A stretch of DNA of 64,000 nucleotides. Origin: an uncultured Pseudomonadota bacterium. GTDB taxonomy: Bacteria; Myxococcota_A; Polyangia; Fen-1088. Position numbers and translations under genes: made by a program. The stretch lies in NCBI GenBank assembly GCA_963847705.1, contig CAWKBC010000014.1, positions 192,001 to 256,000 of the forward strand. Direction: 5' to 3'. Below, one piece after another: positions 2 through 15,538 of the stretch. Within the stretch, counting starts at the first letter, position 1; each line of letters opens with the position of its first letter. Below the pieces are notes generated by a model that was not told where the DNA came from, did no database searches, and saw only the letters and a program-made list of their open reading frames with translations.

Positions 2-805
2 CTCGGTCAGGCTGGTGAACCGGCGCTCCTCCGGATCGACGTCAAGCCTGCCGGCGCCGGCGCGGTGGCCGTCCGCGTCGGCGCACGGAGCCGGATCGTC
101 GCGCTGAACGAGCGAACCGGTGCCGGCGCCGCGCGCGTCGTCGCTCTGGTTATCGCCGAGATCCTGAACAGTGGCGTCGAGACGCCCCCCGCTGGCGAAA
201 CGCCAACTACCGCCGATGCGAAACGCGCGATCCAGGCGCCCAGCCGGACGGCCTCCGGCACGGTCGTGCCGCACCCCACGCTCGCTGCCACCGGGGAGCC
301 GACCGCCGCGCCAGAATGGAAGTCGCGTCTCTGCTTGACGAGCGGCGCCGCCAAGGGGACAGGCGACGAGGAGCTCCTGGCCGGGACCCTCGACGTCGAT
401 CTGACGATGGCGTTCGGCCACGGTCGACTGCGGCTCGCGCCGTCGGCGGGCCTCACGATCATGCCGACGCGCAACGCGGGGACGCTCGATCAGGTTTCGT
501 TCCTGGCGGTGAGCGGGCGTCTGCTGGGTGGCGCGACCTTCGGCCCGCTCGACTTCCTAGGCGGTCCCGTCGTCTCGCGCTACAGCATCGGCGGGGCCAC
601 GCCCCATGGCGGGCTCCTTGTCGGAGCCGAAGGGGTGGCCCGCCTGGCGGCGCCGTTGTCGGACCGGTTCCGCCTCGTCGCTGCGGCGCGGGTCGACGGG
701 TTTGCGGATCGCGTCCGGGTCTTCTGGGTCGACGGTCGGGCCTACGCGACGCCGCGGGTGGAGTTGGGCGTCGGCGTCGGATTGGCCTGGGAATGGGCGT
801 CATGA
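2..805 (+). CDS. Putative outer-membrane protein (5' partial), first gene of an OMP-ECF-FecR module
   Basis: Frame is open from position 2. C-terminus has amphipathic beta-strands ending ELGVGVGLAWEWAS. Stop overlaps the next start (ATGA 802-805). Similar to 15535-16491. Confidence 0.6.
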   Translation, partial: LGQAGEPALLRIDVKPAGAGAVAVRVGARSRIVALNERTGAGAARVVALVIAEILNSGVETPPAGETPTTADAKRAIQAPSRTASGTVVPHPTLAATGEPTAAPEWKSRLCLTSGAAKGTGDEELLAGTLDVDLTMAFGHGRLRLAPSAGLTIMPTRNAGTLDQVSFLAVSGRLLGGATFGPLDFLGGPVVSRYSIGGATPHGGLLVGAEGVARLAAPLSDRFRLVAAARVDGFADRVRVFWVDGRAYATPRVELGVGVGLAWEWAS

Positions 806-1410
806 CCCGGTCGTCCGCTTCCCCTCGCCAGTCGACCGCGGAAGCGGCGGCTAAAGACGCCGGCCTCGTTGACGCGGCGGCGCGCGGCGATCGGCGAGCG
901 TTCGCAGAGCTCTACCGACGGCACCTCGACTCGGTCTACGCGCGTCTCACGCGTGTGATCGGCCCGGCACCCGAGCGCGAAGATCTGGTCCAGCAGATCT
1001 TCCTCGACGTCTACCGGGCTTTGACGCGATTCCGGGGCGATTCCGCGTTCTCGACTTTCCTGCACCGAATCGTCCTCAACGTCGCCTGCGAGCACCTCGA
1101 GCGCCGGCGGCGTGGGCGCGGGCGCAGCGAACCGCTCGGAGCCCGACAGATCGAAACCCTCATCGCGCCGGACGCCTCGCCCGAGCAAAGGGCGCGCCAG
1201 CGCGAGGAGCTGGCCCGTCTGTTCAGGTTCCTCGAGGTGCTTTCGCCCAAACGGCGTGCGGCCTTCGTCCTGGTGGCGATCGAGTCTCTGCCGATCGAGG
1301 AGGCGGCGCGGCTGCTGGACGCCAAACCGGCGGCGATCAAGCAGCGTGTCCTCGAGGCGCGCCGGGAGCTGGCGCGCGCGCTCGACCGCGCGCATGAGGA
1401 GACGACATGA
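802..1410 (+). CDS. ECF RNA polymerase sigma factor
   Basis: Sigma2 motifs (AFAELYRRH, EDLVQQIF, FSTFLHRI) and sigma4 (LSPKRRAAFVLVAIE...EAARLL). ATG 802 overlaps the upstream TGA. Confidence 0.92.
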   Translation: MTRSSASPRQSTAEAAAKDAGLVDAAARGDRRAFAELYRRHLDSVYARLTRVIGPAPEREDLVQQIFLDVYRALTRFRGDSAFSTFLHRIVLNVACEHLERRRRGRGRSEPLGARQIETLIAPDASPEQRARQREELARLFRFLEVLSPKRRAAFVLVAIESLPIEEAARLLDAKPAAIKQRVLEARRELARALDRAHEETT

Positions 1411-2567
1411 AGCCCGACGAGCACGACGCCCGTATCGAGACGGAGATTACCGGTCCGCTGCGAGAGGCGCACTCGGCGCTCGACGAGCTTCACCGCGCCC
1501 GGCTGTCTTTCGCCATCGAGACAACGCTCGACCGCGAGGACAAGGCGATGGCGGCGGGCCGTGCGTCGCGCGTCCGGCGTCGGCGCGTCTGGCTATCAGC
1601 GTCGGGGATCGCCGCCGCGATCGTGGTCGGGGCGGTGTTCTTGACACGCGGACCGCATGCGCCGCCGCGGACCGGCGCGCCCGTGGCGAGCGCTCCTGAA
1701 ACCCGGGCGCCGCCCTTGTTGGTCCCCTACCACGGGGCGGGCGAGCGGGTCCCGGCACCGTCCCCCACGACGAGCCTGCTGGCGCTGGCCGGCGAGAGGG
1801 TGCGTGCCACCGTCGGCACACGCGTGCGCCTTACGCTCGTGGGTCCAGGCCGGGTATCAGTTCTGCCTGCGGCCCGGGTGGGCGACGTCGAGCTAGCGCT
1901 GAACGAAGGACGCCTCCTGGTAGACTACGACGGACACGCGGGGGGCATGCTGAGTGTCGGGTCGCCCGGGGCCGTCACCACGGTCGTTGGAACGCTTTTC
2001 GCCGTCGAGGCGACCGGATCGTCAAGTCGCGTCGCCGTGGCGCGGGGACGGGTTCGGACCACCGACAGCACCGGACACCTCTGGCAGGTCGCCGCAGGCG
2101 ACAGCTGGACCAGCGCCGACGGTCGGTTGGCTCCCATCTCCGACGAGCTCGCCGCGGCCCTCGTGCGCCACGAGGCGGACTGGACGACGGTGCCGCCCGT
2201 CGCGCACCCCGACGAGCCGATCGAGCCTTTGCCGCCGGCGGTGCGTCCGAGCGTGCACCCACGGCGGCAGGTCAAACTGGACGCTCTTTACGCCAAGGCC
2301 GAAGCGGCCATGCGCGCCCACGCGATCGCCGAAGCGTGCCGGATTCTTGAGACCATCGTCGATCGCGATCGCAACGGCCCGCTCGGTGAAACGGCCTTGC
2401 TCGACCTGGCTCGGCTGGCGCTCGCTGACGGCGACCGGGTGGAGGCGCGCCGCGCCCTCGCCCGCCTGCCACCTCGCCTCGCCGATCCGGCCCTGGCCGA
2501 GACCGCCAGCCATCTCCGTTGCCGTGCCGAGCGCGTACTCGACGACGGCGATAGCTGCGGGTTTTGA
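1407..2567 (+). CDS. FecR-domain anti-sigma factor with C-terminal TPR-like domain
   Basis: Single TM helix, FecR motif (VTTVVGTLFAVE...SRVAVARGRVR), helical C-terminus. ATGA-coupled to the sigma gene. Confidence 0.8.
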   Translation: MKPDEHDARIETEITGPLREAHSALDELHRARLSFAIETTLDREDKAMAAGRASRVRRRRVWLSASGIAAAIVVGAVFLTRGPHAPPRTGAPVASAPETRAPPLLVPYHGAGERVPAPSPTTSLLALAGERVRATVGTRVRLTLVGPGRVSVLPAARVGDVELALNEGRLLVDYDGHAGGMLSVGSPGAVTTVVGTLFAVEATGSSSRVAVARGRVRTTDSTGHLWQVAAGDSWTSADGRLAPISDELAAALVRHEADWTTVPPVAHPDEPIEPLPPAVRPSVHPRRQVKLDALYAKAEAAMRAHAIAEACRILETIVDRDRNGPLGETALLDLARLALADGDRVEARRALARLPPRLADPALAETASHLRCRAERVLDDGDSCGF

Positions 2568-2878
2568 ACCAGAATCGCACTCAGGAGGGCGACGGGTCCG
2601 GCCTCGGAATCTTGGTGAACCGGCTGGTCCAATCAGCTTCTTCCCACTCAAGTGCAGGAAAAGCGGACCGGCGCCCCAGTTGCCGGGTGCTGGTCGGCCT
2701 CCTTCCTGCCGGGACTGTCCTGGAAAGCCACGTCGGGCGGCGCCCTTCGTCGGCGCGAAGGGGGAGAAGGGCACCACGTGCCGAGATAAATTCGACGATG
2801 CTTGCTTAGCACTTCGGGGGCCTCGTGCGTCGTGGAGGGTAAATGCTCGCGCGTGCTGCGCGGCTAAGAGGAGAAAAC

Positions 2879-4000
2879 ATGTCCTTTCATCGTTTCGTCG
2901 CGACGTCCGCGCTGGCTCTTGCCCTCGCCCACACCGCCGCCTGTGGCCAACTCTCGGGAGACACCGGCTCCCCCTCCACGCTCACCACCATTCACGGGAC
3001 CATCACTTCCAATTCCACGTCGGCGCCTGCGTCGCTGGCCACGGCCATCGTCTGGGAAGAGATGTCACCGGACGGGACCCTTCATGAGGCCGCCGACAGC
3101 GTGCCTGTGTCCGGGACCTTTCCGGCGTCCTTCAGCATCGCCCTCACCGGGCTCCCCCCCGCGAGCGCGATGCTCGACTTCGCCACCTTTGGGGGCACTC
3201 CTGGGAGCCCCTCCGCCACCGGCGTGCATGTCGCGGTGGGACTCGTGGTGGCGTACGACGACCGCAACGGTAACGGCCAGCTGGATCTCGTCGACGCGAG
3301 CGCATCGCATTACATCGACGAGATCGAGGGTGTGGGCGACCGGTACATCGTCTACCTCGACAGGTCCGTCCCTGCGACGCTCGTGACGAGTCCCGAGTTT
3401 GACGCACTGGGCATCGACGGCTCGATGCCACAGGAGGGCTACAATCTGGTACTTCCGCAGTCCAACTATTGCTTCGCGAACGCCGACGCGGGCGCGGCGG
3501 GAACGTGCACGAGGGGCATCATGTGGGAGCCCATGAAGACCGCCGTCACTATTCCCCTGGGAACGGCCACGGTGATTTTTCCCACGGACCTGCAGGAGCT
3601 GATGTGCTCCTCGGGGCCGAACGGCGACCAGATGGTCGTTGGCGCCCAATCGACGATTTCGGTCGCGGATTTTTCTGGGGCGCTCCCCTCGGCCGACGAT
3701 CCGAACGTGGACTGTTTGGACCTCAACAACTTCCAGTACATCTCGTCTTGCACGACGAGCCCGGCCGGGGTTTGCCAGCAGGTGAACACCGTATGTACCC
3801 AACCGACGATCGTGACACTCGATCCCGCGGGGGGCTCGCCCATCACGCCGCCCGCCAACTGGCCGTGCCCCGCGCAGACGCCGCCGCCTTCCGCCTATCT
3901 GAGCTGGTTGGCAGCGAGAGGGTCGGGGACGGTCAGCGGCGGCGGCGGTGGCGGCTCGAGCGGGTCCGGCTCCGGCGGAACAGGGACGAGCTCGAACTGA
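2879..4000 (+). CDS. Lipoprotein of unknown function with Ca-binding-like motif and Cys-rich C-terminus
   Basis: GAGGAG RBS, lipobox TAAC, motif YDDRNGNGQLD, several Cys, Gly/Ser tail. Confidence 0.75.
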   Translation: MSFHRFVATSALALALAHTAACGQLSGDTGSPSTLTTIHGTITSNSTSAPASLATAIVWEEMSPDGTLHEAADSVPVSGTFPASFSIALTGLPPASAMLDFATFGGTPGSPSATGVHVAVGLVVAYDDRNGNGQLDLVDASASHYIDEIEGVGDRYIVYLDRSVPATLVTSPEFDALGIDGSMPQEGYNLVLPQSNYCFANADAGAAGTCTRGIMWEPMKTAVTIPLGTATVIFPTDLQELMCSSGPNGDQMVVGAQSTISVADFSGALPSADDPNVDCLDLNNFQYISSCTTSPAGVCQQVNTVCTQPTIVTLDPAGGSPITPPANWPCPAQTPPPSAYLSWLAARGSGTVSGGGGGGSSGSGSGGTGTSSN

Positions 4001-4024
4001 ATCCGTCGCCCGGCTTGATAGTCC

Positions 4025-4534
4025 ATGCCGACCGACGACGGAGCAGACTTGACCAACGAGGAGCTGGCCGAGCTCTATCGCCGGTACGGGTTCTTGCTTC
4101 GTCGTCGTTGCCGCATGCTCTTACGCGACGAAGCCCTCGCCGAGGACGCCTTGCAGACCGCCTTCGTGAAGATCATCGAATCGCGCGCAGCGCTGGCGCG
4201 CGCCGACAACCGGCTGGCCTGGATGTATCGGGTCGTGGACCGTTGCAGCTTTGACCTGCTGCGCCGCCGCCGCGTGCGGCGCGCCGAGCCGATCGACCAG
4301 CACTCGGACAGGACGGCTGCCGCCCCGGGGGTCGACCTGGAGGCGCGCAACGCCGTGCTTCGCATCCTCAGCGAGCTCACCGAGTCTGAGTTTGAGGTCG
4401 CTGTGCTGTCCTACGTCGACGGGGTGCCCCAGACCGAGATCGCGTCGGCTTTGGGCCTCTCCCGGCCGACAATTTGGAAACGTCTGCTTTCCATACGCGA
4501 GCGGGCAGCTCGTTTGCTCGAGGTGACGCCATGA
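4025..4534 (+). CDS. ECF RNA polymerase sigma factor
   Basis: LAELYRRY, AEDALQTAF, WMYRV, and HTH EIASALGLSRPTI. Confidence 0.9.
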   Translation: MPTDDGADLTNEELAELYRRYGFLLRRRCRMLLRDEALAEDALQTAFVKIIESRAALARADNRLAWMYRVVDRCSFDLLRRRRVRRAEPIDQHSDRTAAAPGVDLEARNAVLRILSELTESEFEVAVLSYVDGVPQTEIASALGLSRPTIWKRLLSIRERAARLLEVTP

Positions 4535-5250
4535 ACGATCTCCCGAACCACCACCACCCCACGGGTGCTCGGCTGGACGCCGTCATCACAGGGGACGCCG
4601 ACCCCCGCGCGGCAGCGCACGTCGCATCCTGCGCCGAGTGCGCGGCCTACGTCGAGCGTCTCCGCCAGGGGGCGGAGAGCTTCGCCGCGGCCCCGCGCCC
4701 CAGCCCCGAGGCATTCGTGCAGGCCGTCGTCCGTCGGCGGGCAGGAGAGGGGGCGCGTCAGGCGCGGTCGCGTTGGATCGGCGCGACGACCTCCGGGCTG
4801 GCCCTCGCGGCGTGCGTCGTGATCCTCGCGCATGCGCGGCCGATCACCGCGCCACCAAACGACGTCCCAGTGGTGGCGCCGGGACCGGGGCCGATCCGGT
4901 TCAAAGGGGGATCTCAGGTGGCCGTGATCGTCGAGCGGCGCGGAGGGCAGTCGCGCGAGCTGGGGGCTCTGAGCGTCGCGCCCGGCGATCGGATCCGAGT
5001 CGAGATTGCGCTCGACCACGACGATGACGTAGAAGCCGGCGTGCTCGCCGGCGACGGCACCTGGGTTGCGCTCCAGCCGGCCACGCACCTCGGTGCGGGG
5101 ACGCACTTCTCGGCGGGAGCGGTTGCCTTTGACCAGCATGTTGACGAAGGTTGGGTCGTCGTCGGGCCCCCCGATGCGGTCGCGCGGGCGCGCGCAACGC
5201 GGGACCTCTCCGGCGTCCACGCCATCCGCATCCACCCGGCTACCCCGTGA
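4531..5250 (+). CDS. Zinc-binding (zf-HC2/ZAS) transmembrane anti-sigma factor with periplasmic domain
   Basis: HxxxCxxC (HVASCAEC), one TM helix, C-terminal beta-rich domain. ATGA overlap with the sigma gene. Confidence 0.8.
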   Translation: MNDLPNHHHPTGARLDAVITGDADPRAAAHVASCAECAAYVERLRQGAESFAAAPRPSPEAFVQAVVRRRAGEGARQARSRWIGATTSGLALAACVVILAHARPITAPPNDVPVVAPGPGPIRFKGGSQVAVIVERRGGQSRELGALSVAPGDRIRVEIALDHDDDVEAGVLAGDGTWVALQPATHLGAGTHFSAGAVAFDQHVDEGWVVVGPPDAVARARATRDLSGVHAIRIHPATP

Positions 5251-6815
5251 AACGAGCCAACCTCGCGCTGGGCTTGGCGCTCCTCGTCGCCCTGGCTGCA
5301 CCGGAGGTGCTGGCGGCACCGGTTCGCATCCTCATCGCGGTCGGCGCGCCGACGGGGCTCTCGGACGATCAGACTCTTGTGCACCCCCGGGACGACGCGC
5401 GCGGCGTCGCGGAGGTACTGACCGCGCTCGGCGGAGTGTCTCCACGAGAGGCGCTGCTCGTCCCCGATGCGCGGGTCGCTTCCGTCCGGGCGGCCTTTGA
5501 TCGTGCCGAGGCGATTGCTCGCGGTCACGCTGCTGCGGAGGTGACGTTCGTCTTCTACTTCAGCGGCCACGGTGACCACGAGGCGCTCCATCTCTCGGGA
5601 GAGACGCTCTCGCTGGACGAGCTGCGCGCCCGTGTCGAACGCATGCCGGTGGCACTTCGCCTCGTGATCATCGACGCCTGCCGCGTGAGCAGAGATCGCG
5701 CGAAGGGAATGACGATGGAGCCCGGCTTCGCCATTTCCCTCGCTCCCGTACCGTCGGCGTCGGGTATGGCCTGGCTCTTCGCCTCGAGCGACGGAGAGGT
5801 GGCGCAGGAGTCCGACGAGATCGGCGGGGCGCTCTTCTCGCATTTCTGGACGACGGGTCTCCGGGGCGCGGCCGACGCCGACGGTGACGGACGCGTCACG
5901 CTGCAGGAGTCGTTCGACTTCGCGTACGCGCAGACGCTCCTGCGGTCGGCGCGCTCGGGCGCGGTGCTGCAAAGGCCGCAGGAAAAGCTCGATCTCAGTG
6001 TGGCGGGTCCGGTGGTTCTCACTCAGCTGGCCGCGCAGCGTTCAACGCTCGTGCTCCCGGCCGACCGGGACGCCCTTTACCTCGTGTACGGCATTGCCTC
6101 GCACGCGCTCGAGGCCGAGCTGTTCGGGAGCCCGGATCGATCCACCTCCCTCGCGCTCCCCGCCGGGCGTTACCTCGTGCAACGCCGCTTCGCCGGGACC
6201 GGGGCCGCGACGGAGGTGCTTCTCACGCCGGGAGGCGTCCGCACGCTGGAGCCGGGGACCCTTCACCCCTTCGAACCCCAAGCGCTCGCGCGCAAGAGCG
6301 AGCTCGTGGTGAGCCCGTGGAGCCTGACCTTGAGCGACGGCGTTGTTGCGGGGAGCGCGATTCTCTGTGGGCGACGAAGCCATACTCGAGGTCGAGCGGC
6401 GCTGGGCGAGCTTTGGCGTCGCCGTGCGAGCGCTCGGGGGTTGGGGGAGAACGCGACCCCGGCGAACCAAGTCTACGAAACGACGCTCGGGGGCGAAGCG
6501 GGGCTCGTCCGTATCCTGTCGCTGGGCGCGCGGGTAGACATGCGTCTCGGCGTCGACGCGCGCGCGGAATACATCCGGCAACAGGTAGAACGGAAGGATG
6601 CGGCCATGGTTGAAACGGTCGGATACCCGGGCATCATGTATTTCAATGGGAGCGCTTGGGGTGGAGGGCTCCACGCTGACGCCCGATACCAGCTCTCGAC
6701 CACCTTCCATCTCGTGGCCGCGGTGAAGGGCTTGGCGCTGGGGACGCCGACCGCCATGGGGCTCCAGGCGCGACTCTCTTTCGGCGCGTACCTAGGAATC
6801 GGCGCGTCGTTCTGA
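5247..6815 (+). CDS. Secreted caspase-family (peptidase C14) protease with C-terminal beta-barrel-like region
   Basis: Signal peptide, catalytic YFSGHG and IIDACR, DADGDGRVTLQE motif, terminal Phe (GIGASF). GTGA overlap with the anti-sigma. Confidence 0.88.
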   Translation: MKRANLALGLALLVALAAPEVLAAPVRILIAVGAPTGLSDDQTLVHPRDDARGVAEVLTALGGVSPREALLVPDARVASVRAAFDRAEAIARGHAAAEVTFVFYFSGHGDHEALHLSGETLSLDELRARVERMPVALRLVIIDACRVSRDRAKGMTMEPGFAISLAPVPSASGMAWLFASSDGEVAQESDEIGGALFSHFWTTGLRGAADADGDGRVTLQESFDFAYAQTLLRSARSGAVLQRPQEKLDLSVAGPVVLTQLAAQRSTLVLPADRDALYLVYGIASHALEAELFGSPDRSTSLALPAGRYLVQRRFAGTGAATEVLLTPGGVRTLEPGTLHPFEPQALARKSELVVSPWSLTLSDGVVAGSAILCGRRSHTRGRAALGELWRRRASARGLGENATPANQVYETTLGGEAGLVRILSLGARVDMRLGVDARAEYIRQQVERKDAAMVETVGYPGIMYFNGSAWGGGLHADARYQLSTTFHLVAAVKGLALGTPTAMGLQARLSFGAYLGIGASF

Positions 6816-7125: not shown

Positions 7126-7695
7126 ATGACACGTCCAATTTCGCGGTTCGTTACTGTCGTTGGCGTCACTGCAGTGCTCGCGGTCGCTTTGCTCGCCCCG
7201 GGTTGTGGCGGCTCGAGCTCCAGCAACGACGGCGGCGGAACAGGCGGCGAAACCTCGTCGACCGGCGGGACGCCTGGAGCCGGCAAGGCCGGCAATAGCG
7301 GTCACACGGGAGGAACGTCTGGCGCGACGGGGGGAAACAAGGGTACCGGCACCGGCGGGAACAACGGAACGGGCACTGCCGGGACCAACGGCAGCGGCGG
7401 TCAGGGGTTCTTCGGCGGCGGCGGCAACGGCTTCTTCGGCGGCGGCGCCAACGGCTTCTTCGGCGGCGGCGGCGCCAATGGCTTCTTCGGCGGCGGCGGC
7501 GCCAATGGCTTCTTCGGCGGCGGCGGCGCCAATGGCTTCTTCGGTGGCGGCGGCGCCAACGGCTTCTTCGGTGGCGGCGGCGCCAACGGCTTCTTCGGTG
7601 GCGGCGGTGCCAACGGCTTCTTCGGTGGCGGCGGTGCCAACGGCTTCTTCGGTGGCGGCGGTGCCAACGGCTTCTTCGGTGGCGGCGGCGGCTAG
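7126..7695 (+). CDS. Gly-rich lipoprotein ending in 11 GFF-containing repeats (consensus GGGGANGFF)
   Basis: AAGGAG RBS, hydrophobic signal with APGC lipobox-like site. Variation among the 27-nt units is synonymous in this frame. Confidence 0.8.
   Translation: MTRPISRFVTVVGVTAVLAVALLAPGCGGSSSSNDGGGTGGETSSTGGTPGAGKAGNSGHTGGTSGATGGNKGTGTGGNNGTGTAGTNGSGGQGFFGGGGNGFFGGGANGFFGGGGANGFFGGGGANGFFGGGGANGFFGGGGANGFFGGGGANGFFGGGGANGFFGGGGANGFFGGGGANGFFGGGGG
7405..7692 (+). repeat. Coding tandem repeat, 27-nt unit (first two units 24 nt), 11 units
   Basis: Unit ggcttcttcggYggcggcggYgccaaY; 11 ttcttc cores between 7408 and 7677. Confidence 0.95.
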
Positions 7696-7761: not shown

Positions 7762-9369
7762 GTGGATAATCGCCTGGCAGTGCGATTCGACGCTCTCCGA
7801 GACAGATATCTGACCATCGATCCGCGAGGATTGGGCGCGGGCCGTATCTCGCTCGCGACAGTCCTACTCCTCGATCTCGTTCGCCGGTTCCCGCTCGTCA
7901 CTCTCTGGTACTCGAATCAAGGACTGTTGCCCAACCACACCGTGTTGTGGCGGCCACCGTTTCCCTACGTTTTCTCGTTGTTCTTCACAGCGTCGCGCCC
8001 CACCGAGGCTCTACTCGGATTTGGGCTCTGCGGCGCTGCCTACGTCATGCTGCTCGTGGGCAACCGGACGCGACTGGCCCACATGGCGAGCTTGCTCGCA
8101 GTCCTCAGTCTTCACGGACGCGTCCTCTTCATCCAGAACAGCGGGGACGTGGTCCTGGTTGAAATCTGTCTTTGGACGCTGTTTCTACCTCTCGGCAGAC
8201 GATATTCGGTCGATTCGTTGCGCACTCGTCTTCGACTGAAACCCGGGCTCGACGTTTCGGACGTCTTCCTGGAGGGCACGGCTCCCCCAGATCGGACGCC
8301 GGTCGTTTCGTTGGCAGTGCTTGCCCTCGTCGCCCAGTTGGCCGTGATTTACCTCCTCAACGCTATTCAAAAGGATGGTCGCACCTGGCGAGATGGCAGC
8401 GCGGTCCACTACGTCCTCTACTACGCCAACGTAGTCACCCCGCTCGGGGTCCTCGCTCGCAGCTGGATCACGCCCCGCGCCTCCCAGCTTCTCACCTGGT
8501 CGAGCAGGTTTACAGAAGTGGTTCTTCCCTTCTTGCTCCTGGCGCCCGTTGCTCAGCGATCGGCGCGCCGGCTGGCTATTGCGCTCGTGGTGGCGTTACA
8601 CGGTGCTTTCGGCCTATTCCTCAACCTCGGAATCTTCGTGCCAGCCATGCTGGTTTTCACGCCCTTCCTGATGACGGCGCCCGATTGGGATCGGATCGAA
8701 CGTTGGTGGGCGACGAGAGGCTTCACCAGGGGCACCCGCGGAATGCTCGCGCAGGCGCTCACCGCCCTCGAACGGCGAGGTCTATTGCGGCTGACGACGC
8801 CCGCCCCCGAGACTCCGTCGCGTAGGGCGGCAACGCGGACCCGCTGGGGGCTCCTGGGCGAAGGAGCGGTGTTTGCCCTGATGACGTTCGCGACCGTCGG
8901 GGTCATAGTCGACAATTCCGCGGTCACGCACGTCCCCGCATCGCTGGAACCACGAGTGGTTTACGCCATTCGGGTCTACCTACAGATGTTCCAATCCTGG
9001 TCGCTGTTTGCACCCGACGTCCCCACGAGCGAGGGCACCGTAGCTGTCGATGCCGTGACCGCCGAGGGCCGCCATGTCGATCCGCTCAACGAAGAGCTCT
9101 CGCCGGGTGCCGCCTGGCCGGGCGATGCGATCCCTTCGCGGTTGGGGAACAACGGCTTCGCTTCAGCCTACCTCCTACGGCTCCCGAATCGCCCGGAGTA
9201 TTTTACGGCGCTCGGAGAATGGTTGCTGCGGTATCCCGATCGCACGAGGCGGGACGCGGACCGAATCGTATCCTTCCGGGTGCTCACACTGGAACAGGAC
9301 GATCCTGCGCCTGGCCGTTATTCGGCGGGCACTCTGCAAGCGAAAGTCTTGTTTCGATACCCCAACTGA
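7762..9369 (+). CDS. HTTM-domain (SdpB / vitamin K-dependent carboxylase-like) polytopic membrane protein with SdpA-like C-terminal motif
   Basis: Multiple TM helices, NSGDVVL, YLLNAIQKDGRTWRDGSAV, and C-terminal QSWSLFAPD. Confidence 0.75.
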   Translation: MDNRLAVRFDALRDRYLTIDPRGLGAGRISLATVLLLDLVRRFPLVTLWYSNQGLLPNHTVLWRPPFPYVFSLFFTASRPTEALLGFGLCGAAYVMLLVGNRTRLAHMASLLAVLSLHGRVLFIQNSGDVVLVEICLWTLFLPLGRRYSVDSLRTRLRLKPGLDVSDVFLEGTAPPDRTPVVSLAVLALVAQLAVIYLLNAIQKDGRTWRDGSAVHYVLYYANVVTPLGVLARSWITPRASQLLTWSSRFTEVVLPFLLLAPVAQRSARRLAIALVVALHGAFGLFLNLGIFVPAMLVFTPFLMTAPDWDRIERWWATRGFTRGTRGMLAQALTALERRGLLRLTTPAPETPSRRAATRTRWGLLGEGAVFALMTFATVGVIVDNSAVTHVPASLEPRVVYAIRVYLQMFQSWSLFAPDVPTSEGTVAVDAVTAEGRHVDPLNEELSPGAAWPGDAIPSRLGNNGFASAYLLRLPNRPEYFTALGEWLLRYPDRTRRDADRIVSFRVLTLEQDDPAPGRYSAGTLQAKVLFRYPN

Positions 9370-10263: not shown

Positions 10264-12420
10264 TCAGGGCGTAGCGTCCCCCATCGTGTAGCTCGTCGCG
10301 ATCGCGCCGTTCGTTCCTTGCCCGTGGAGAAAGGATCTCACGTAGTCCACGGTCACGTTCGCCGGAGAGACCGTGACGCGCAGGTGGCCCGAGTTGGCGA
10401 TCATCTGCGCCCCCGCATAGTCCGTGGGATTGGTGGAGAAACCCATGTCGTAGCTGGCGTTCGCGGCCATGGGCATCTCCTGATAGACGATGCCATCCAG
10501 TGACTCTTTCGCGAAGACGTGGTCGTGGGCGTGGAAGAACGCGGTTACGTTATTTTGCGCCATCAGTTGATGGACCGGCAGCGCCCAGCCCGGTCGGTTG
10601 GTGTCGAAGGTCCAGGTCGTTCCATCGGTGTCATAGCCGCCCCATTCGCAATACTTGGCGCCCAGGACCCCGCCTCGACCGTAGTCGTCGATGCCTCCGG
10701 CCACGTGGTGCGCGAAGACGAACTTGTACTTCGCGCTGCTTGTCTGAAGCGTTTGCTGCAACCAGAGATACTGCTGTTGTCCCAGCGTCCAATCCCACCG
10801 GGTCCCCACGACCGCGTTGCTGATGTCGCCGCCCTCGGTACCCGCGTAGGGTTTGTGTGTCGTGTACCAGTAGGGCTCGATCGCCACAAACAGAGCATCG
10901 CCCCACTCGAAGGCGTAGTAATCCCCTCGCAGCTGATCTCCAGTGATGTAAGCTGCGTTGGCGGACGTATCGGTGTTCCCGGTGTAGAAGCCGTCGGGCT
11001 CGGGATTGAGAAAGAATTGTTTGCGGGCGTTGGCGTTGAGAACGGGCAGGGAATCCGCGACGCTCGTGGCCACATCTGCGTACCAGCCCTCTTCTCGCTC
11101 GTGGTTGCCGAGCACCAGGAAGACCGGCGTCGAGTGCGCGGCGAGATCGAAGACCGCCAGCTGGTTCACGTACTTCGTGGCAACGGTCGCGGCGGTCTCG
11201 GTGACGTCGTCATTGCTGATGGTATCACCGAGGTCCAGCAAGAAATCGTTCTGCTCGGCGAGGATGTTCTGCATGGTCGTGCGGTAAAGCGTGTCGTCAT
11301 AAAACTCCGGATCTCCCTGGTGTGAATCGGCCTGCACGGCGAATGTGAACGTTTGTCCCCGCGCGCGCTGGGTGTGGAAAGTGTGCTCGCCGCCGGCGGT
11401 GAGGGCGCTCGACGATCCGGTGGGCCGCGACAGCAGCCGGTAGTAGTAGGCCGTGTCGGGTATGAGGCCGCTCACCAGCACCTCGGCGAAGCCATCCGCG
11501 AAGGACGTCACGGTGGTCGCTCCAGAGTAAACGCCCGAGGTCGTGCCGTACTCGACGGCCGCGTCGAGCGCCTGGGTCGCGATGGCTTTGACCGTCACGG
11601 ATTGATCGGTCGGGCGTCCGAGGAACTCTGTAGAGACCCAGGTCAGGCTCGACGGTTGGCTGGACCCCGCGGCTCCCCCGCTCCCACCGATCATGCCCCC
11701 CAGTCCGTTGTTCGACCCGTCGCCCCCCTCGGCACTGCCGTCCGCGCCGACGGCTCCATCCATTCGTCGAAGTCCTCCCATTCCACCGTCGCGAACTTCC
11801 CCGCCGATCCCGGCGATCCCCCCGCTGCCCTCGGCTTTGACTCCGCCCGGACCCCCGCTTCCGGCCATCATGCTGGCCATGCCACCGAGCGAGCCACCCA
11901 AACCGCCCGCTCCTTCGCCGGCGCTTCCCGGTGTTCTGCCGCCGGCGCTGCCCGCTGCGCCGCCGTTCCCGCCAGGGGAACCGGCACTCGCTGCGCCTCC
12001 ACCCGCGCCGGCGCCAACGGCCGAATCAAGGTGGATCGGAATCGCAGTACAGGACGGGGCCAGGGTCACCGTCGTCGAAGTCGGCGCCAAGGGAGGCCCT
12101 TCGCCGATGACGGGGGTCACGATGACGGTCACAAGGCTTCCCGGAACGTACCTGCTGAAGCTCAGCGCAAGCGAGTCCGTCGTCCGTCCCGGTGCGCGCG
12201 TCACCGAGAAGGCCTGGCCCATCATCCCGTCAAGCTGGGTCTGCACGGTCAGGGCGTTGGCATTTACCGCTGCCCCGGAAAACGTGAAGGACAAGAGGAC
12301 TGTGCCCGGGGCACATTTGTTCGTCGTCTGGCACCCCGCCTCGACCAGCAGGAGCGCGGTCAGGGCGATCAGACTCCCTCTGAATCCGCGCAGCCTGGGC
12401 GCGCGCATTTCAGAGCTCAC
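10264..12420 (-). CDS. Lipoprotein metallophosphoesterase (purple acid phosphatase-like) with FN3-type domain
   Basis: EAGC lipobox, Gly linker, metal motifs DSH, DLGD, GNHE, AHH and HAHDH. Confidence 0.85.
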   Translation of the reverse strand: MSSEMRAPRLRGFRGSLIALTALLLVEAGCQTTNKCAPGTVLLSFTFSGAAVNANALTVQTQLDGMMGQAFSVTRAPGRTTDSLALSFSRYVPGSLVTVIVTPVIGEGPPLAPTSTTVTLAPSCTAIPIHLDSAVGAGAGGGAASAGSPGGNGGAAGSAGGRTPGSAGEGAGGLGGSLGGMASMMAGSGGPGGVKAEGSGGIAGIGGEVRDGGMGGLRRMDGAVGADGSAEGGDGSNNGLGGMIGGSGGAAGSSQPSSLTWVSTEFLGRPTDQSVTVKAIATQALDAAVEYGTTSGVYSGATTVTSFADGFAEVLVSGLIPDTAYYYRLLSRPTGSSSALTAGGEHTFHTQRARGQTFTFAVQADSHQGDPEFYDDTLYRTTMQNILAEQNDFLLDLGDTISNDDVTETAATVATKYVNQLAVFDLAAHSTPVFLVLGNHEREEGWYADVATSVADSLPVLNANARKQFFLNPEPDGFYTGNTDTSANAAYITGDQLRGDYYAFEWGDALFVAIEPYWYTTHKPYAGTEGGDISNAVVGTRWDWTLGQQQYLWLQQTLQTSSAKYKFVFAHHVAGGIDDYGRGGVLGAKYCEWGGYDTDGTTWTFDTNRPGWALPVHQLMAQNNVTAFFHAHDHVFAKESLDGIVYQEMPMAANASYDMGFSTNPTDYAGAQMIANSGHLRVTVSPANVTVDYVRSFLHGQGTNGAIATSYTMGDATP

Positions 12421-13310: not shown

Positions 13311-14909
13311 TTACGGCTTGCTGCTGCAGGCGGCGTGCAACCGAACCGCCGAGCCGTGCTTCGGATAGCGCCGCTCGAGCTCCGCCAGCAGGGCCTGCGC
13401 CGCCGGGCACCCGCCGCGCACCACCGCCAGAGCCGTCTCGGCTCCGAGCGCGTCGGCATCGTGCGCCGAGGCCGGGAACCGGCGCCGGAAATCGGCCAGA
13501 CACAGCTCCGCCTCCGTGGCGGTCTGCTTGGCCAGCACCCGGCAGCGCAAGTAATCCTTGGGCTCCTCCAGGGACGGCGTGTCGACCGCGGCCAGATCGC
13601 GCAGCGCCGCGTCCCCGGAGCCGGCGGTCTCTTCCATGAGCGCCAGCTCGTATCGCGCGGCCGCCGTTGCGGACTCGCGCGGGAACCGCTCCACCAGGCT
13701 CCGCAACGTACGCAGCGCGAGCCCCGTGTCGCCCGCCGCCCGTGCTGCATCTGCCTCACGGAACAGGGTTTGCGCGGTCATTTCCTCGGGCGGGGCGAAC
13801 GCAGGAGGCTCGGTCGACTCGGCGCTTGCTCGTGCGAGCAGCGAACGCGGACCGGCTGGAGTGGCAGCGCGCACCGGCGGCTCAGACGCCGGGCGGGTCG
13901 GTTCCTGCGCCGGCTCCGTCGAGGGGGGCGGGAATGGATCCGCCGGCGGCGCCGCTCCGCTTGCCGGCGCCGACAGCCGGACGGCGACGTGCGACTCGAC
14001 GAGTATCCAGGCCGGCGCCGACGCGATTCGCCGCCTCCCGACCCAGACGCCGGCCCCCGCCGGCGCCTCGATGACGGACAGGGGAACGGTGGCCCCACGC
14101 GGCGGCGGTGTCCGCTCGTGCTCAAACAGCGCCTCGGCGAGCGCGGGCGCGATCTCGTCCGGCTCTGGCAGCGTCGTCAGCCAGCTCTGGCCGGCCGCGA
14201 TCTCCCGAGACGCGCGTGGCGGGGCGCCCGAGGGGCCGGGGGAGGTGCCCACCCGCACCCGGCCGTGCGCGACCGCCACCCGACTCGCGCCGCCAACCAC
14301 CTCGACGGAGAACAGCGTTCCGACGACGTCGGTGACGGCCCCCGGCGAAACGATCTGCAGGCGCCGGCCGGTGCCGCCTTCGAGTGACGCCAGCAGCCGC
14401 CCTCGATCCAGGTGGACCACCGTTTGCCCGCTGCCGGTCGCGCGCTCGGACCAGGCGCGCGCCGGCCCCTTCAGGGTGATCGCGATGGCGTCGCCCAGCG
14501 ACGCGCGCACCAGCCACCCCGCCGGGACCTCCAGGCGCGAGGCCGGTTGCTCCAGAAGCTCCGGCATGGTGGCGGCTCCCGCGCCCTCCGTCGGCGCGAC
14601 GACGTAGGGTTCGAACTGGGGCGCCGGCTCGGGGCCGCCCGCGACAGGCGATCGGCCGGCCGTCACGACGGTGCGCGCGGCCAGCACGGCGCCAGCGGCG
14701 GCACCCACCGCCAGCAGCGCGGCCGCTCGCCGGAGCGCGCGCCGGTGGCCCCGCCCCGGCTGGCGTTCCAGCTCGGCGCTGAGGCGGGTCTCGGCCCGCG
14801 ACCGCGTGATCTCGTCGAAGGGCGATTCGATGCGCGCGAGCGCGTCGCAGAGCCTGTCCAGCTCCTCGCGCTCGACGGCGCCGGCCTCGGGGTCTCGGCC
14901 CCGGCTCAC
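13311..14909 (-). CDS. FecR-domain anti-sigma factor with PEGA-like and TPR-like domains
   Basis: SPGAVTDVVGTLFSVE...SRVAVAHGRVR and a TPR-like tail with YLRCR. GTGA overlap at 14906-14909. Paralog of 1407-2567. Confidence 0.8.
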   Translation of the reverse strand: MSRGRDPEAGAVEREELDRLCDALARIESPFDEITRSRAETRLSAELERQPGRGHRRALRRAAALLAVGAAAGAVLAARTVVTAGRSPVAGGPEPAPQFEPYVVAPTEGAGAATMPELLEQPASRLEVPAGWLVRASLGDAIAITLKGPARAWSERATGSGQTVVHLDRGRLLASLEGGTGRRLQIVSPGAVTDVVGTLFSVEVVGGASRVAVAHGRVRVGTSPGPSGAPPRASREIAAGQSWLTTLPEPDEIAPALAEALFEHERTPPPRGATVPLSVIEAPAGAGVWVGRRRIASAPAWILVESHVAVRLSAPASGAAPPADPFPPPSTEPAQEPTRPASEPPVRAATPAGPRSLLARASAESTEPPAFAPPEEMTAQTLFREADAARAAGDTGLALRTLRSLVERFPRESATAAARYELALMEETAGSGDAALRDLAAVDTPSLEEPKDYLRCRVLAKQTATEAELCLADFRRRFPASAHDADALGAETALAVVRGGCPAAQALLAELERRYPKHGSAVRLHAACSSKP

Positions 14910-15538
14910 GACGTCCCCTCCACCGGCCGCACCTCGCCCGCCTCCGCGGCCAGGCGGGCCATCAGATCGCGACGCGCGTGCAGCGCCCGTTGCTTGACCG
15001 CGCCTTCCCGGTCGCCGATCAGCTCCGCGGCCTCGGCCAGGGAGCACCCCTCGACGGCGACCAGGACGAAGGCGATCCGCTTCTTAGGCGACAGCTGGTC
15101 CAGCAGCGCGAGCAGCCGGGCCAGATCCGCACGCGCGGCGACCTGATCTTCCAGCGCGGGGCCGAGCTGCTCGACCAGCGCCGCCGCGTCGAGCGGGCCC
15201 TCGTTTTCGGCGGCGCGATGGCGCCCGCGCAAGTGATCGTAAGAAATGTTCACCGCGATACGATGAAGATAGGTCGAGAGCTTCGCCTCGTTGCGATAGC
15301 CGGGCAACCCGCGATGGAGGGCCATGAACACCTTCTGGACCAGGTCGTCGCGCTCGGCGACTGGGCCCACCAGGCGCGTGATGCGCGTCCTCACGGCGTC
15401 CGCGTGGCGGCGGAAGAGGCGGGCGAACGCGGCGCCGTCACCGAGGCGCGCCGCGGCTATCAGCGCCGCGTCGTCGGCTTCCGAGCCGCGATGCGGGTTG
15501 ACGGCCCTCGCCGGTGCCAGGCGGCCACGGATCCTCAC
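14906..15538 (-). CDS. ECF RNA polymerase sigma factor
   Basis: AFARLFRRH, DDLVQKVF, STYLHRI, LSPKKRIAFVLVAVE. Paralog of 802-1410. Confidence 0.92.
   Translation of the reverse strand: MRIRGRLAPARAVNPHRGSEADDAALIAAARLGDGAAFARLFRRHADAVRTRITRLVGPVAERDDLVQKVFMALHRGLPGYRNEAKLSTYLHRIAVNISYDHLRGRHRAAENEGPLDAAALVEQLGPALEDQVAARADLARLLALLDQLSPKKRIAFVLVAVEGCSLAEAAELIGDREGAVKQRALHARRDLMARLAAEAGEVRPVEGTS

Follow-up and report, generated by a model that had tools for sequence, protein, structure and literature searches.

A conserved myxobacterial operon encodes an ECF sigma factor, a predicted zinc anti-sigma factor and a barrel-borne caspase homologue that may act as its site-1 protease

The 64,000-nucleotide window analysed here (positions 192,001 to 256,000, forward strand, of contig CAWKBC010000014.1 in GenBank assembly GCA_963847705.1, from an uncultured bacterium placed by GTDB in Myxococcota_A; Polyangia; Fen-1088) contains a four-gene operon encoding a lipoprotein, a sigma factor of the extracytoplasmic function (ECF) type, a membrane zinc anti-sigma factor and an exported caspase-family (C14) protease. 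This unit is real and conserved across myxobacteria. Its anatomy makes it fairly probable that the protease processes itself and serves as a site-1 protease that would cut the anti-sigma factor in its linker and thereby free the ECF sigma factor, and a candidate Lys-Gly (K-G) cleavage site common to the protease and the anti-sigma factor supports such site-1 cleavage. The four-gene composition had been proposed in an initial annotation of the sequence, and all four open reading frames (ORFs) were found in place on the plus strand (Table 1).

The ECF and anti-sigma ORFs, and likewise the anti-sigma and protease ORFs, overlap by 4 nucleotides (nt; ATGA and GTGA, respectively), which points to coupling of the three genes. 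On the basis of overlap, ribosome-binding site and homologue starts, the starts at 5247 and 2879 were preferred to those upstream, at TTG (5151) and ATG (2843). Gene order was then surveyed with profiles built in this analysis for all four genes, using the best 80 of 305 confirmed relatives from a GTDB scan covering 31 of the 64 parts of the collection. As the initial annotation had anticipated, the arrangement is conserved elsewhere, with both the ECF and the anti-sigma gene beside the protease gene in 65/80 loci (49/56 among loci having at least 3 kb on each side) and the three genes consecutive in 48/80. The exact four-gene order of the window was present in 20/80 loci, and the lipoprotein gene was placed last in a further arrangement (14/80). 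The source genome holds four cassettes, each of the four caspase genes found there adjoining an ECF and an anti-sigma gene of this type. Within the genus the unit is patchy, since the window's lipoprotein was found in only two of 24 same-genus genomes (68–95% complete), with identical gene order in both. Mantel correlations over 67 loci (r 0.41–0.45) show co-inheritance only. Named homologues were from Polyangia, and the labelled sequencing runs with related DNA were mostly soil or peat metagenomes, no RNA run being among the runs listed. A paralogous cassette of the source genome (L091:3642-9286, contig C27) encodes a large lipoprotein, an ECF, an anti-sigma factor with KG and a caspase whose repeat-rich C-terminus is apparently split over two frames.

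Membership of the protease in the C14 family was evident from a PF00656 score of 40.3 bits (cut-off 21.4). A homologue search gave 717 matches, of which 120 were listed and 113 aligned, and in this alignment the His-Cys dyad that had been read as intact from the motifs SGHG and DAC (SGH108G and DAC145) was invariant in 113/113 sequences. The other features first noted in the single sequence also recurred across the family, a hydrophobic A-x-A leader consistent with a signal peptide being present in 104 of the 109 homologues with a leader of at least 15 amino acids (aa; a heuristic measure) and Phe being the last residue in 92/113. An AlphaFold2 model computed on the 113-sequence alignment had a mean predicted local distance difference test (pLDDT) score of 90 and comprised a leader helix, the caspase domain, a small beta-sandwich and, as the barrel-like C-terminus, eight strands (358–521) matching NspA and OmpA. 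The top Foldseek rank for the model was MALT1 caspase-Ig3, with NspA (1p4t, E 7e-7, TMt 0.71) and OmpA at lower ranks, while VIA gave Z values of ~22 to caspases 3/7 (for residues 22–261, Z 22.3 to caspase-7 with a root-mean-square deviation of 2.6 over 195 aligned residues, and Z 22.2 to metacaspase 4). A PDB sequence search with the protease returned only a weak metacaspase match (E 0.049). Eight amphipathic strands, a C-terminal aromatic residue and a signal peptide together mark the C-terminal domain as a predicted 8-stranded outer-membrane barrel, of which strands 2–3 are off-frame in the window copy. OmpA-type 8-stranded barrels have their two termini in the periplasm, and the caspase domain carried on this barrel would therefore be expected to face that compartment. 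Three acidic residues, D50, D143 and E188, were invariant in 113/113 proteases and fit the basic-P1 specificity of para-, meta- and orthocaspases reported in the available part of PMC8283722; Arg specificity of the MALT1 paracaspase is described in the accessible part of 10.1101/2022.09.29.510036. For the EF-hand-like loop of the protease, a hidden Markov model search weakly matched a calcium-binding protein (E 0.6). In Labilithrix luteola DSM 27648 (L031) and in genome G021 (L089), too, the protease gene is divided between two ORFs, near the barrel start in both.

The reading of the third gene as a membrane zinc anti-sigma factor was upheld by the pattern H9-x20-H30-x3-C34-x2-C37 followed by a single hydrophobic helix at ~82–100, which corresponds to the zinc-binding anti-sigma pattern H/C-x20-23-HxxxCxxC with a subsequent transmembrane helix; both zinc and sigma binding are predicted. 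The AlphaFold2 model (pLDDT 87.5) showed a helical N-terminal domain carrying H9, H30, C34 and C37, a long helix including the transmembrane segment, a disordered linker at ~102–127 (pLDDT ~50) and a periplasmic beta-sandwich at 129–236. Among 94 aligned anti-sigma factors, zf-HC2 (PF13490) was detected in 26 and DUF4384 (PF14326, E<=0.01) in 20, neither of them in the window protein, and a FecR match in none. Foldseek with the anti-sigma model gave nothing at E<=0.001 and only weak beta-sandwich matches, and no Pfam or NCBIfam match above cut-off was obtained for the window's anti-sigma factor or lipoprotein.

The strongest pointer to how the two proteins interact is the K-G motif, found once in the anti-sigma linker and twice in the protease. 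Across the 71 anti-sigma factors from 83 loci, the site column is K in 63, R in 7 and M in 1 with the next residue G in 71/71, so that [K/R]G lies just outside the membrane helix in 70/71; this Gly is the sole invariant column of the 94-sequence alignment. At protease site 1 the residues are K in 81, R in 1 and L in 1, followed by G in 83/83 ([K/R]G in 82/83), and the loop after it (155–169) has pLDDT <50. Site 2 is K in 66 and R in 11 of the 83 loci with G in 68, and in the aligned homologues K350 is present in 113/113, followed by G351 in 106 and S351 in 7. As the anti-sigma profile itself contains the K-G motif and may bias these counts, two outside controls were run. In the first, covering 39 ECF-adjacent transmembrane proteins of the source genome, KG occurred within 50 residues after the helix in 4/4 cassette members and 1/35 others, with [KR]G in 8/35 of the non-cassette proteins. 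The second used a DUF4384-only search of 121 genomes that gave 51 matches, 30 of them with loci (8 cassette and 22 non-cassette); [K/R]G was at the site in 7/8 cassette members, KG within 45 residues in 1/22 non-cassette members, and [KR]G in 6/22 of these non-cassette DUF4384 proteins. The protease and lipoprotein could in principle be mere outputs of a conventional ECF/anti-sigma pair, the shared K-G being coincidental or structural: the putative ECF promoter precedes both genes, a two-residue motif is short, and strand turns frequently begin with Gly. However, the scarcity of KG in the two control sets (1/22 before non-cassette DUF4384 and 1/35 after the transmembrane helix of other ECF-adjacent proteins) and the fact that no feature of these anti-sigma factors is more conserved than K-G make such an explanation very improbable. 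A covariation of K and R between protease site 2 and the anti-sigma factor (Fisher p 0.02) was rejected as evidence, the Arg variant needing only ~3 changes on a quick tree. In locus L079, the anti-sigma factor and protease site 1 both have Arg. Neither of the two flanking FecR-TPR anti-sigma factors in the window has KG after its transmembrane helix.

The position of the motifs bears on whether the anti-sigma loop is a substrate. It might instead be a pseudo-substrate or docking motif that restrains the protease or couples the two membranes, the protease cutting other envelope proteins in remodelling or death and sigma release needing another site-1 protease. The PCi protein of H. ochraceum, which PCaspase cleaves and which in turn inhibits PCaspase according to the available part of 10.1101/2023.06.23.546230, offers a model for such a role. 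Yet the motif lies in a disordered linker between a transmembrane helix and a folded domain, where one cut would shed the whole domain in the way that site-1 cleavage demands, and the protease has a matching site in its own loop; we therefore regard docking or inhibition as unlikely. Site-1 cleavage by the caspase, which we favour, nevertheless has several points to its debit. A loop resembling a substrate is compatible with inhibition or docking as well. In locus L022 (L022:4330-6681) the anti-sigma Met pairs with Leu at protease site 1, and in none of the other 69 pairs examined, L022 being counted among them, is either residue non-basic. Since the acidic pocket residues are kept there although neither P1 candidate is basic, docking or displacement of the site fits equally; as one event it argues both ways. 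Seven of the 80 loci have the protease and lipoprotein with no ECF or anti-sigma gene detected, and six of these form one clade in which ~5.9 kb of upstream sequence is present, as would suit a docking role. Site 2 is K-S in the window's subclade (7/113) and is less conserved across loci, which leaves release from the barrel less secure. D50, D143 and E188 are assigned to the S1 pocket only tentatively, by motif position and by analogy with known caspases. Finally, the barrel of the window copy is off-frame over ~27 residues if the indels described below are real. The clade with no ECF gene detected comprises L034, L043, L045, L046, L047 and L068; its close kin L037 and L040 have both ECF and anti-sigma genes.

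The same sites might also serve to lure a Lys/Arg-specific protease of outside origin (predator, prey, phage or a stressed cell), which would activate the caspase zymogen or itself cut the anti-sigma factor, the unit acting as a protease alarm that the caspase only amplifies. All three sites are in exposed linkers, and activation of PCaspase depends on another protease, SAVED-CHAT (10.1101/2023.06.23.546230, available part). Against this, the invariant acidic residues predict that the caspase itself is able to cut the sites, and no second protease is present among the four profiles of the conserved unit, the flanking genes lying outside the survey, so that we give the alarm little credence.

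The ECF sigma factor was recognized by PF04542 (32.4 bits) and PF08281 (34.8 bits), both above cut-off, and by TIGR02937 (64.3, cut-off 42.9), and consists of sigma2 and sigma4 only in 169 aa, below the limit of ~200 aa. A promoter had been suspected in the interval 2570–2878, and a promoter-like motif does occur there, at 2806–2831. This TTAGCA-N16-CGTC sequence is a variant of the motif of its clade, TTTACA-N16/17-[CG]GTC, and is kept in the three closest loci (L084, L089 and L090). The motif type TTTACA-N16/18-[CG]GTC precedes the first gene in 20/25 loci of the window clade (24 from a quick tree plus L031, too short for the tree) and 0/20 others, with a shuffle mean of ~0.1, the figure of 20/25 being partly circular as the pattern was derived from the same loci. 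The exact promoter pattern is present as a single copy in the source genome, with 0.77 expected by chance. G021 and G023 each have one copy, located at the operon, and five other genomes likewise have one apiece, at the operon in three of them. No wider regulon was found in these exact-pattern scans of the source genome, G021, G023 and the five others, and neither a sigma-70 promoter upstream of the operon nor an intrinsic terminator was found. The ECF profile picks out 57 ORFs in the source genome, at least 39 of which are followed by a transmembrane protein. The available portion of the PMC7826278 supplement mentions zinc/DUF4384 anti-sigma factors under ECF25, and the word "caspase" does not occur in that portion.

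In the lipoprotein, Cys22 was invariant in 32/32 aligned sequences, with G23 in at least 90%. The lipobox Cys follows a hydrophobic leader, with a non-canonical Thr at the -3 position in the window copy, and the family also shares an EF-hand-like motif and a number of conserved cysteines. The lipoprotein may serve as sensor, cofactor or output. No informative Pfam match was found for the 32 members, and the ESM Atlas gave only unnamed Myxococcota clusters. In a rough test, another lipobox protein directly followed the protease in 9 of 39 loci without this lipoprotein family. KG was rejected as a signal in the lipoproteins, being present anywhere in 19/42 with no conserved column and absent from that of the window.

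Taken from the anatomy seen in the sequence and models, namely the export signal, barrel, His-Cys dyad, acidic residues and K-G sites, the proposed mechanism would run as follows. The 8-stranded barrel would anchor the caspase in the outer membrane so that it faces the periplasm. A signal from the envelope, for which the lipoprotein or Ca2+ is a plausible relay, would set off self-cleavage at K153-G154 and, perhaps, K350, which would loosen the protease from the barrel and let it reach the inner membrane. Cleavage at K125-G126 would then shed the periplasmic domain of the anti-sigma factor, and an RseP-type protease would complete its removal; RseP-like M50 proteases are present in the source genome, and M. 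xanthus RseP acts on an anti-sigma factor stripped of its periplasmic domain (PMC11506125, available part). The freed ECF may transcribe its own operon from the promoter at 2806–2831 in a positive feedback, the lipoprotein and protease being the only outputs detected of this loop. The initial annotation had pictured an outer-membrane-anchored caspase that senses a signal and cleaves the anti-sigma factor in the periplasm; the analysis supports this picture in part, sensing by the caspase itself and cutting by a caspase still on its anchor being conjectural. More tentatively, and with somewhat less than even confidence, we suggest a distinct myxobacterial class of trans-envelope signalling, in which a paracaspase-like zymogen under the outer membrane would use one Lys-Gly code three times (for self-activation, barrel release and anti-sigma shedding) within a self-amplifying ECF loop that has a variable lipoprotein sensor.

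Two compensating single-base indels affect the barrel of the window copy. One base is inserted near 6361 and another is lost near 6435–6447, so that protease residues ~373–399 (~27) are read off-frame and disagree with all 29 closest homologues shown, with which the +1 frame agrees. Related contigs X1, X3 and X7 are without the extra base at 6361, and X1 and X7 carry the G that the window lacks near 6435; X3 ends too near the second indel, X8 does not cover it, and no related contig is identical to the window. The double indel is probably an assembly error, because relatives a few percent different are without both indels and because the apparent splitting of the paralogous C27 caspase suggests indel errors in the assembly; the second indel, moreover, lies at G runs. 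The protease of locus L084, a relative with 93% protease identity, is intact. A real double frameshift would stop barrel assembly and leave the switch dead or altered in this strain, independently of the mechanism in the family. The loss of strand-like alternation in the replaced segment and the lack of an identical contig speak for it, but in view of the G runs, the relatives and the split paralogue we consider real damage improbable.

Table 1. Features of the operon in the window (plus strand throughout; positions are those of the window)
Feature	Position	Strand	Remarks
ECF-type promoter-like motif	2806..2831	+	-35 TTAGCA, 16 nt, -10 CGTC; 47 nt before lipoprotein start
Lipoprotein ORF	2879-4000	+	373 aa; Cys-rich, unnamed myxobacterial family; YxDxNGNGxLD EF-hand-like motif, C-terminal WPC, Gly/Ser tail
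ECF sigma ORF	4025-4534	+	169 aa
Anti-sigma ORF	4531-5250	+	239 aa; zinc-finger anti-sigma domain, transmembrane helix, linker, DUF4384-like beta-sandwich (AlphaFold2 model)
Predicted zinc ligands H9, H30, C34, C37	4555..4641	+	H30, C34, C37 invariant in 24 close homologues; 54/71 across loci
Predicted transmembrane helix of anti-sigma, ~82-100	4774..4830	+	hydropathy scan; long helix in model
K125-G126 of anti-sigma	4903..4908	+	candidate site-1 cleavage site, end of disordered periplasmic linker
C14 protease ORF, exported	5247-6815	+	522 aa; signal peptide 1-23, caspase 24-260, beta-sandwich ~266-342, 8-stranded barrel 358-522 with Phe last
Catalytic His108	5568..5570	+	113/113 aligned homologues, 83/83 loci proteases
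Catalytic Cys145	5679..5681	+	113/113 aligned homologues, 83/83 loci proteases
K153-G154 of protease (site 1)	5703..5708	+	candidate self-processing site, start of low-confidence loop after catalytic Cys
EF-hand-like D210-x-D/N212-x-D214...E221 loop	5874..5909	+	candidate Ca2+ site, putative; D210, D214, E221 83/83
K350-S351 of protease (site 2; K-G in most of family)	6294..6299	+	candidate release site, soluble part/barrel
Off-frame patch, barrel strands 2-3	6361..6447	+	two compensating single-base indels

Two ECF/FecR-TPR anti-sigma pairs flank the operon, at 65–2567 (+) and 13311–about 15800 (-). The upstream pair consists of an ECF (799–1410) and a FecR-TPR protein (1407–2567), both on the plus strand and lying behind an ORF whose end resembles barrel strands, and the downstream pair of a FecR-TPR protein (13311–15047, -) behind another ECF. 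Between the operon and the downstream pair are a probable lipoprotein (7126–7695, +) with 10.4 copies of a 27-nt repeat (7414–7690) encoding a Gly-rich 9-mer with Phe-Phe, an HTTM/SdpB-like membrane protein (7762–9369, +; weak matches below cut-off) and an exported metallophosphoesterase (PhoD/purple acid phosphatase-like) with a long Gly-rich linker (10264–12420, -).

In the RseA/DegS/RseP system a site-1 cut is followed by a site-2 cut, and in FecA-FecR-FecI an outer-membrane protein is co-encoded with an ECF and an anti-sigma factor. Compared with the former, the site-1 enzyme of the operon would be an outer-membrane cysteine caspase and not an inner-membrane serine protease; compared with the latter, the unit has neither a TonB-dependent receptor nor a FecR domain, and its outer-membrane partner is an 8-stranded barrel. 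The protease resembles the MALT1 paracaspase in having a caspase domain followed by a beta-sandwich, an expected basic P1 and a proposed role in signalling rather than death, whereas MALT1 shares ~11% identity with it and is eukaryotic, cytosolic and without a barrel. Regulated intramembrane proteolysis is summarised in PMC11506125, and the proposed protease-gated mechanism would be a variant of the ECF systems controlled in this way, for an operon type already listed in 2012. That listing (Asplund-Samuelsson 2012, PMC3501461) gives four sigma-70/metacaspase operons in Myxococcus xanthus DK1622 and others in Anaeromyxobacter, Haliangium, Sorangium, Ralstonia and Fibrobacter; like the window unit they combine a caspase homologue with a sigma-70 factor, their taxa match the loci found here, and they are very probably this family. 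Section 13 of that article, the part available, names no anti-sigma factor, barrel, topology, cleavage motif, promoter or mechanism. The earlier remark that related clusters are annotated in myxobacteria with no demonstrated mechanism agrees with this section and with our literature searches, which returned no description of the mechanism, subscription journals being mostly outside their reach. A supposed link to the act operon of M. xanthus was dropped, as no paper on it was found.

Among characterised systems, DdvS/DdvA of M. xanthus, in the available part of PMC11506125, similarly pairs an ECF with a zinc-finger single-pass anti-sigma factor, and a periplasmic caspase-family domain is proposed for the first linker cut, followed by RseP. 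DdvA differs in that a TPR-CHAT part with an incomplete active site is fused to the anti-sigma factor and in that it controls a defence island, whereas the window has a separate C14 enzyme on a barrel and the periplasmic part of its anti-sigma factor is a 110-residue beta-sandwich. Caspase-family proteases cutting sigma inhibitors or sigma-linked proteins are likewise described for type III-E Csx29/Csx30/CASP-sigma (PMC10028731) and for SAVED-CHAT/PCaspase/PCc-sigma/PCi of H. ochraceum (10.1101/2023.06.23.546230), where PCaspase, a C14 enzyme, is made as a zymogen and becomes active when cleaved. These two systems differ in their CRISPR or cyclic-nucleotide triggers, and the available parts of both reports describe no export signal or membrane tether. 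A further defence precedent, in which sigma inhibitors or effectors are the targets of caspase-family proteases, is given in the accessible part of 10.1101/2025.11.14.688446.

In the available parts of these precedents, the characterised bacterial caspase-family proteases act in anti-phage defence. If the proposed mechanism is true, a bacterial caspase would be a dedicated signalling site-1 protease and not an enzyme of defence or death, and a new kind of site-1 protease with a MALT1-like domain order would be added to those known. The unit would offer a compact protease-gated transcription switch, and its predicted sites make the 2012 observation testable by single mutations in a tractable laboratory strain. 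The mechanism would further give an envelope-signalling role to a widespread myxobacterial caspase family, with four copies in the genome studied here and four in M. xanthus as listed in the available part of PMC3501461.

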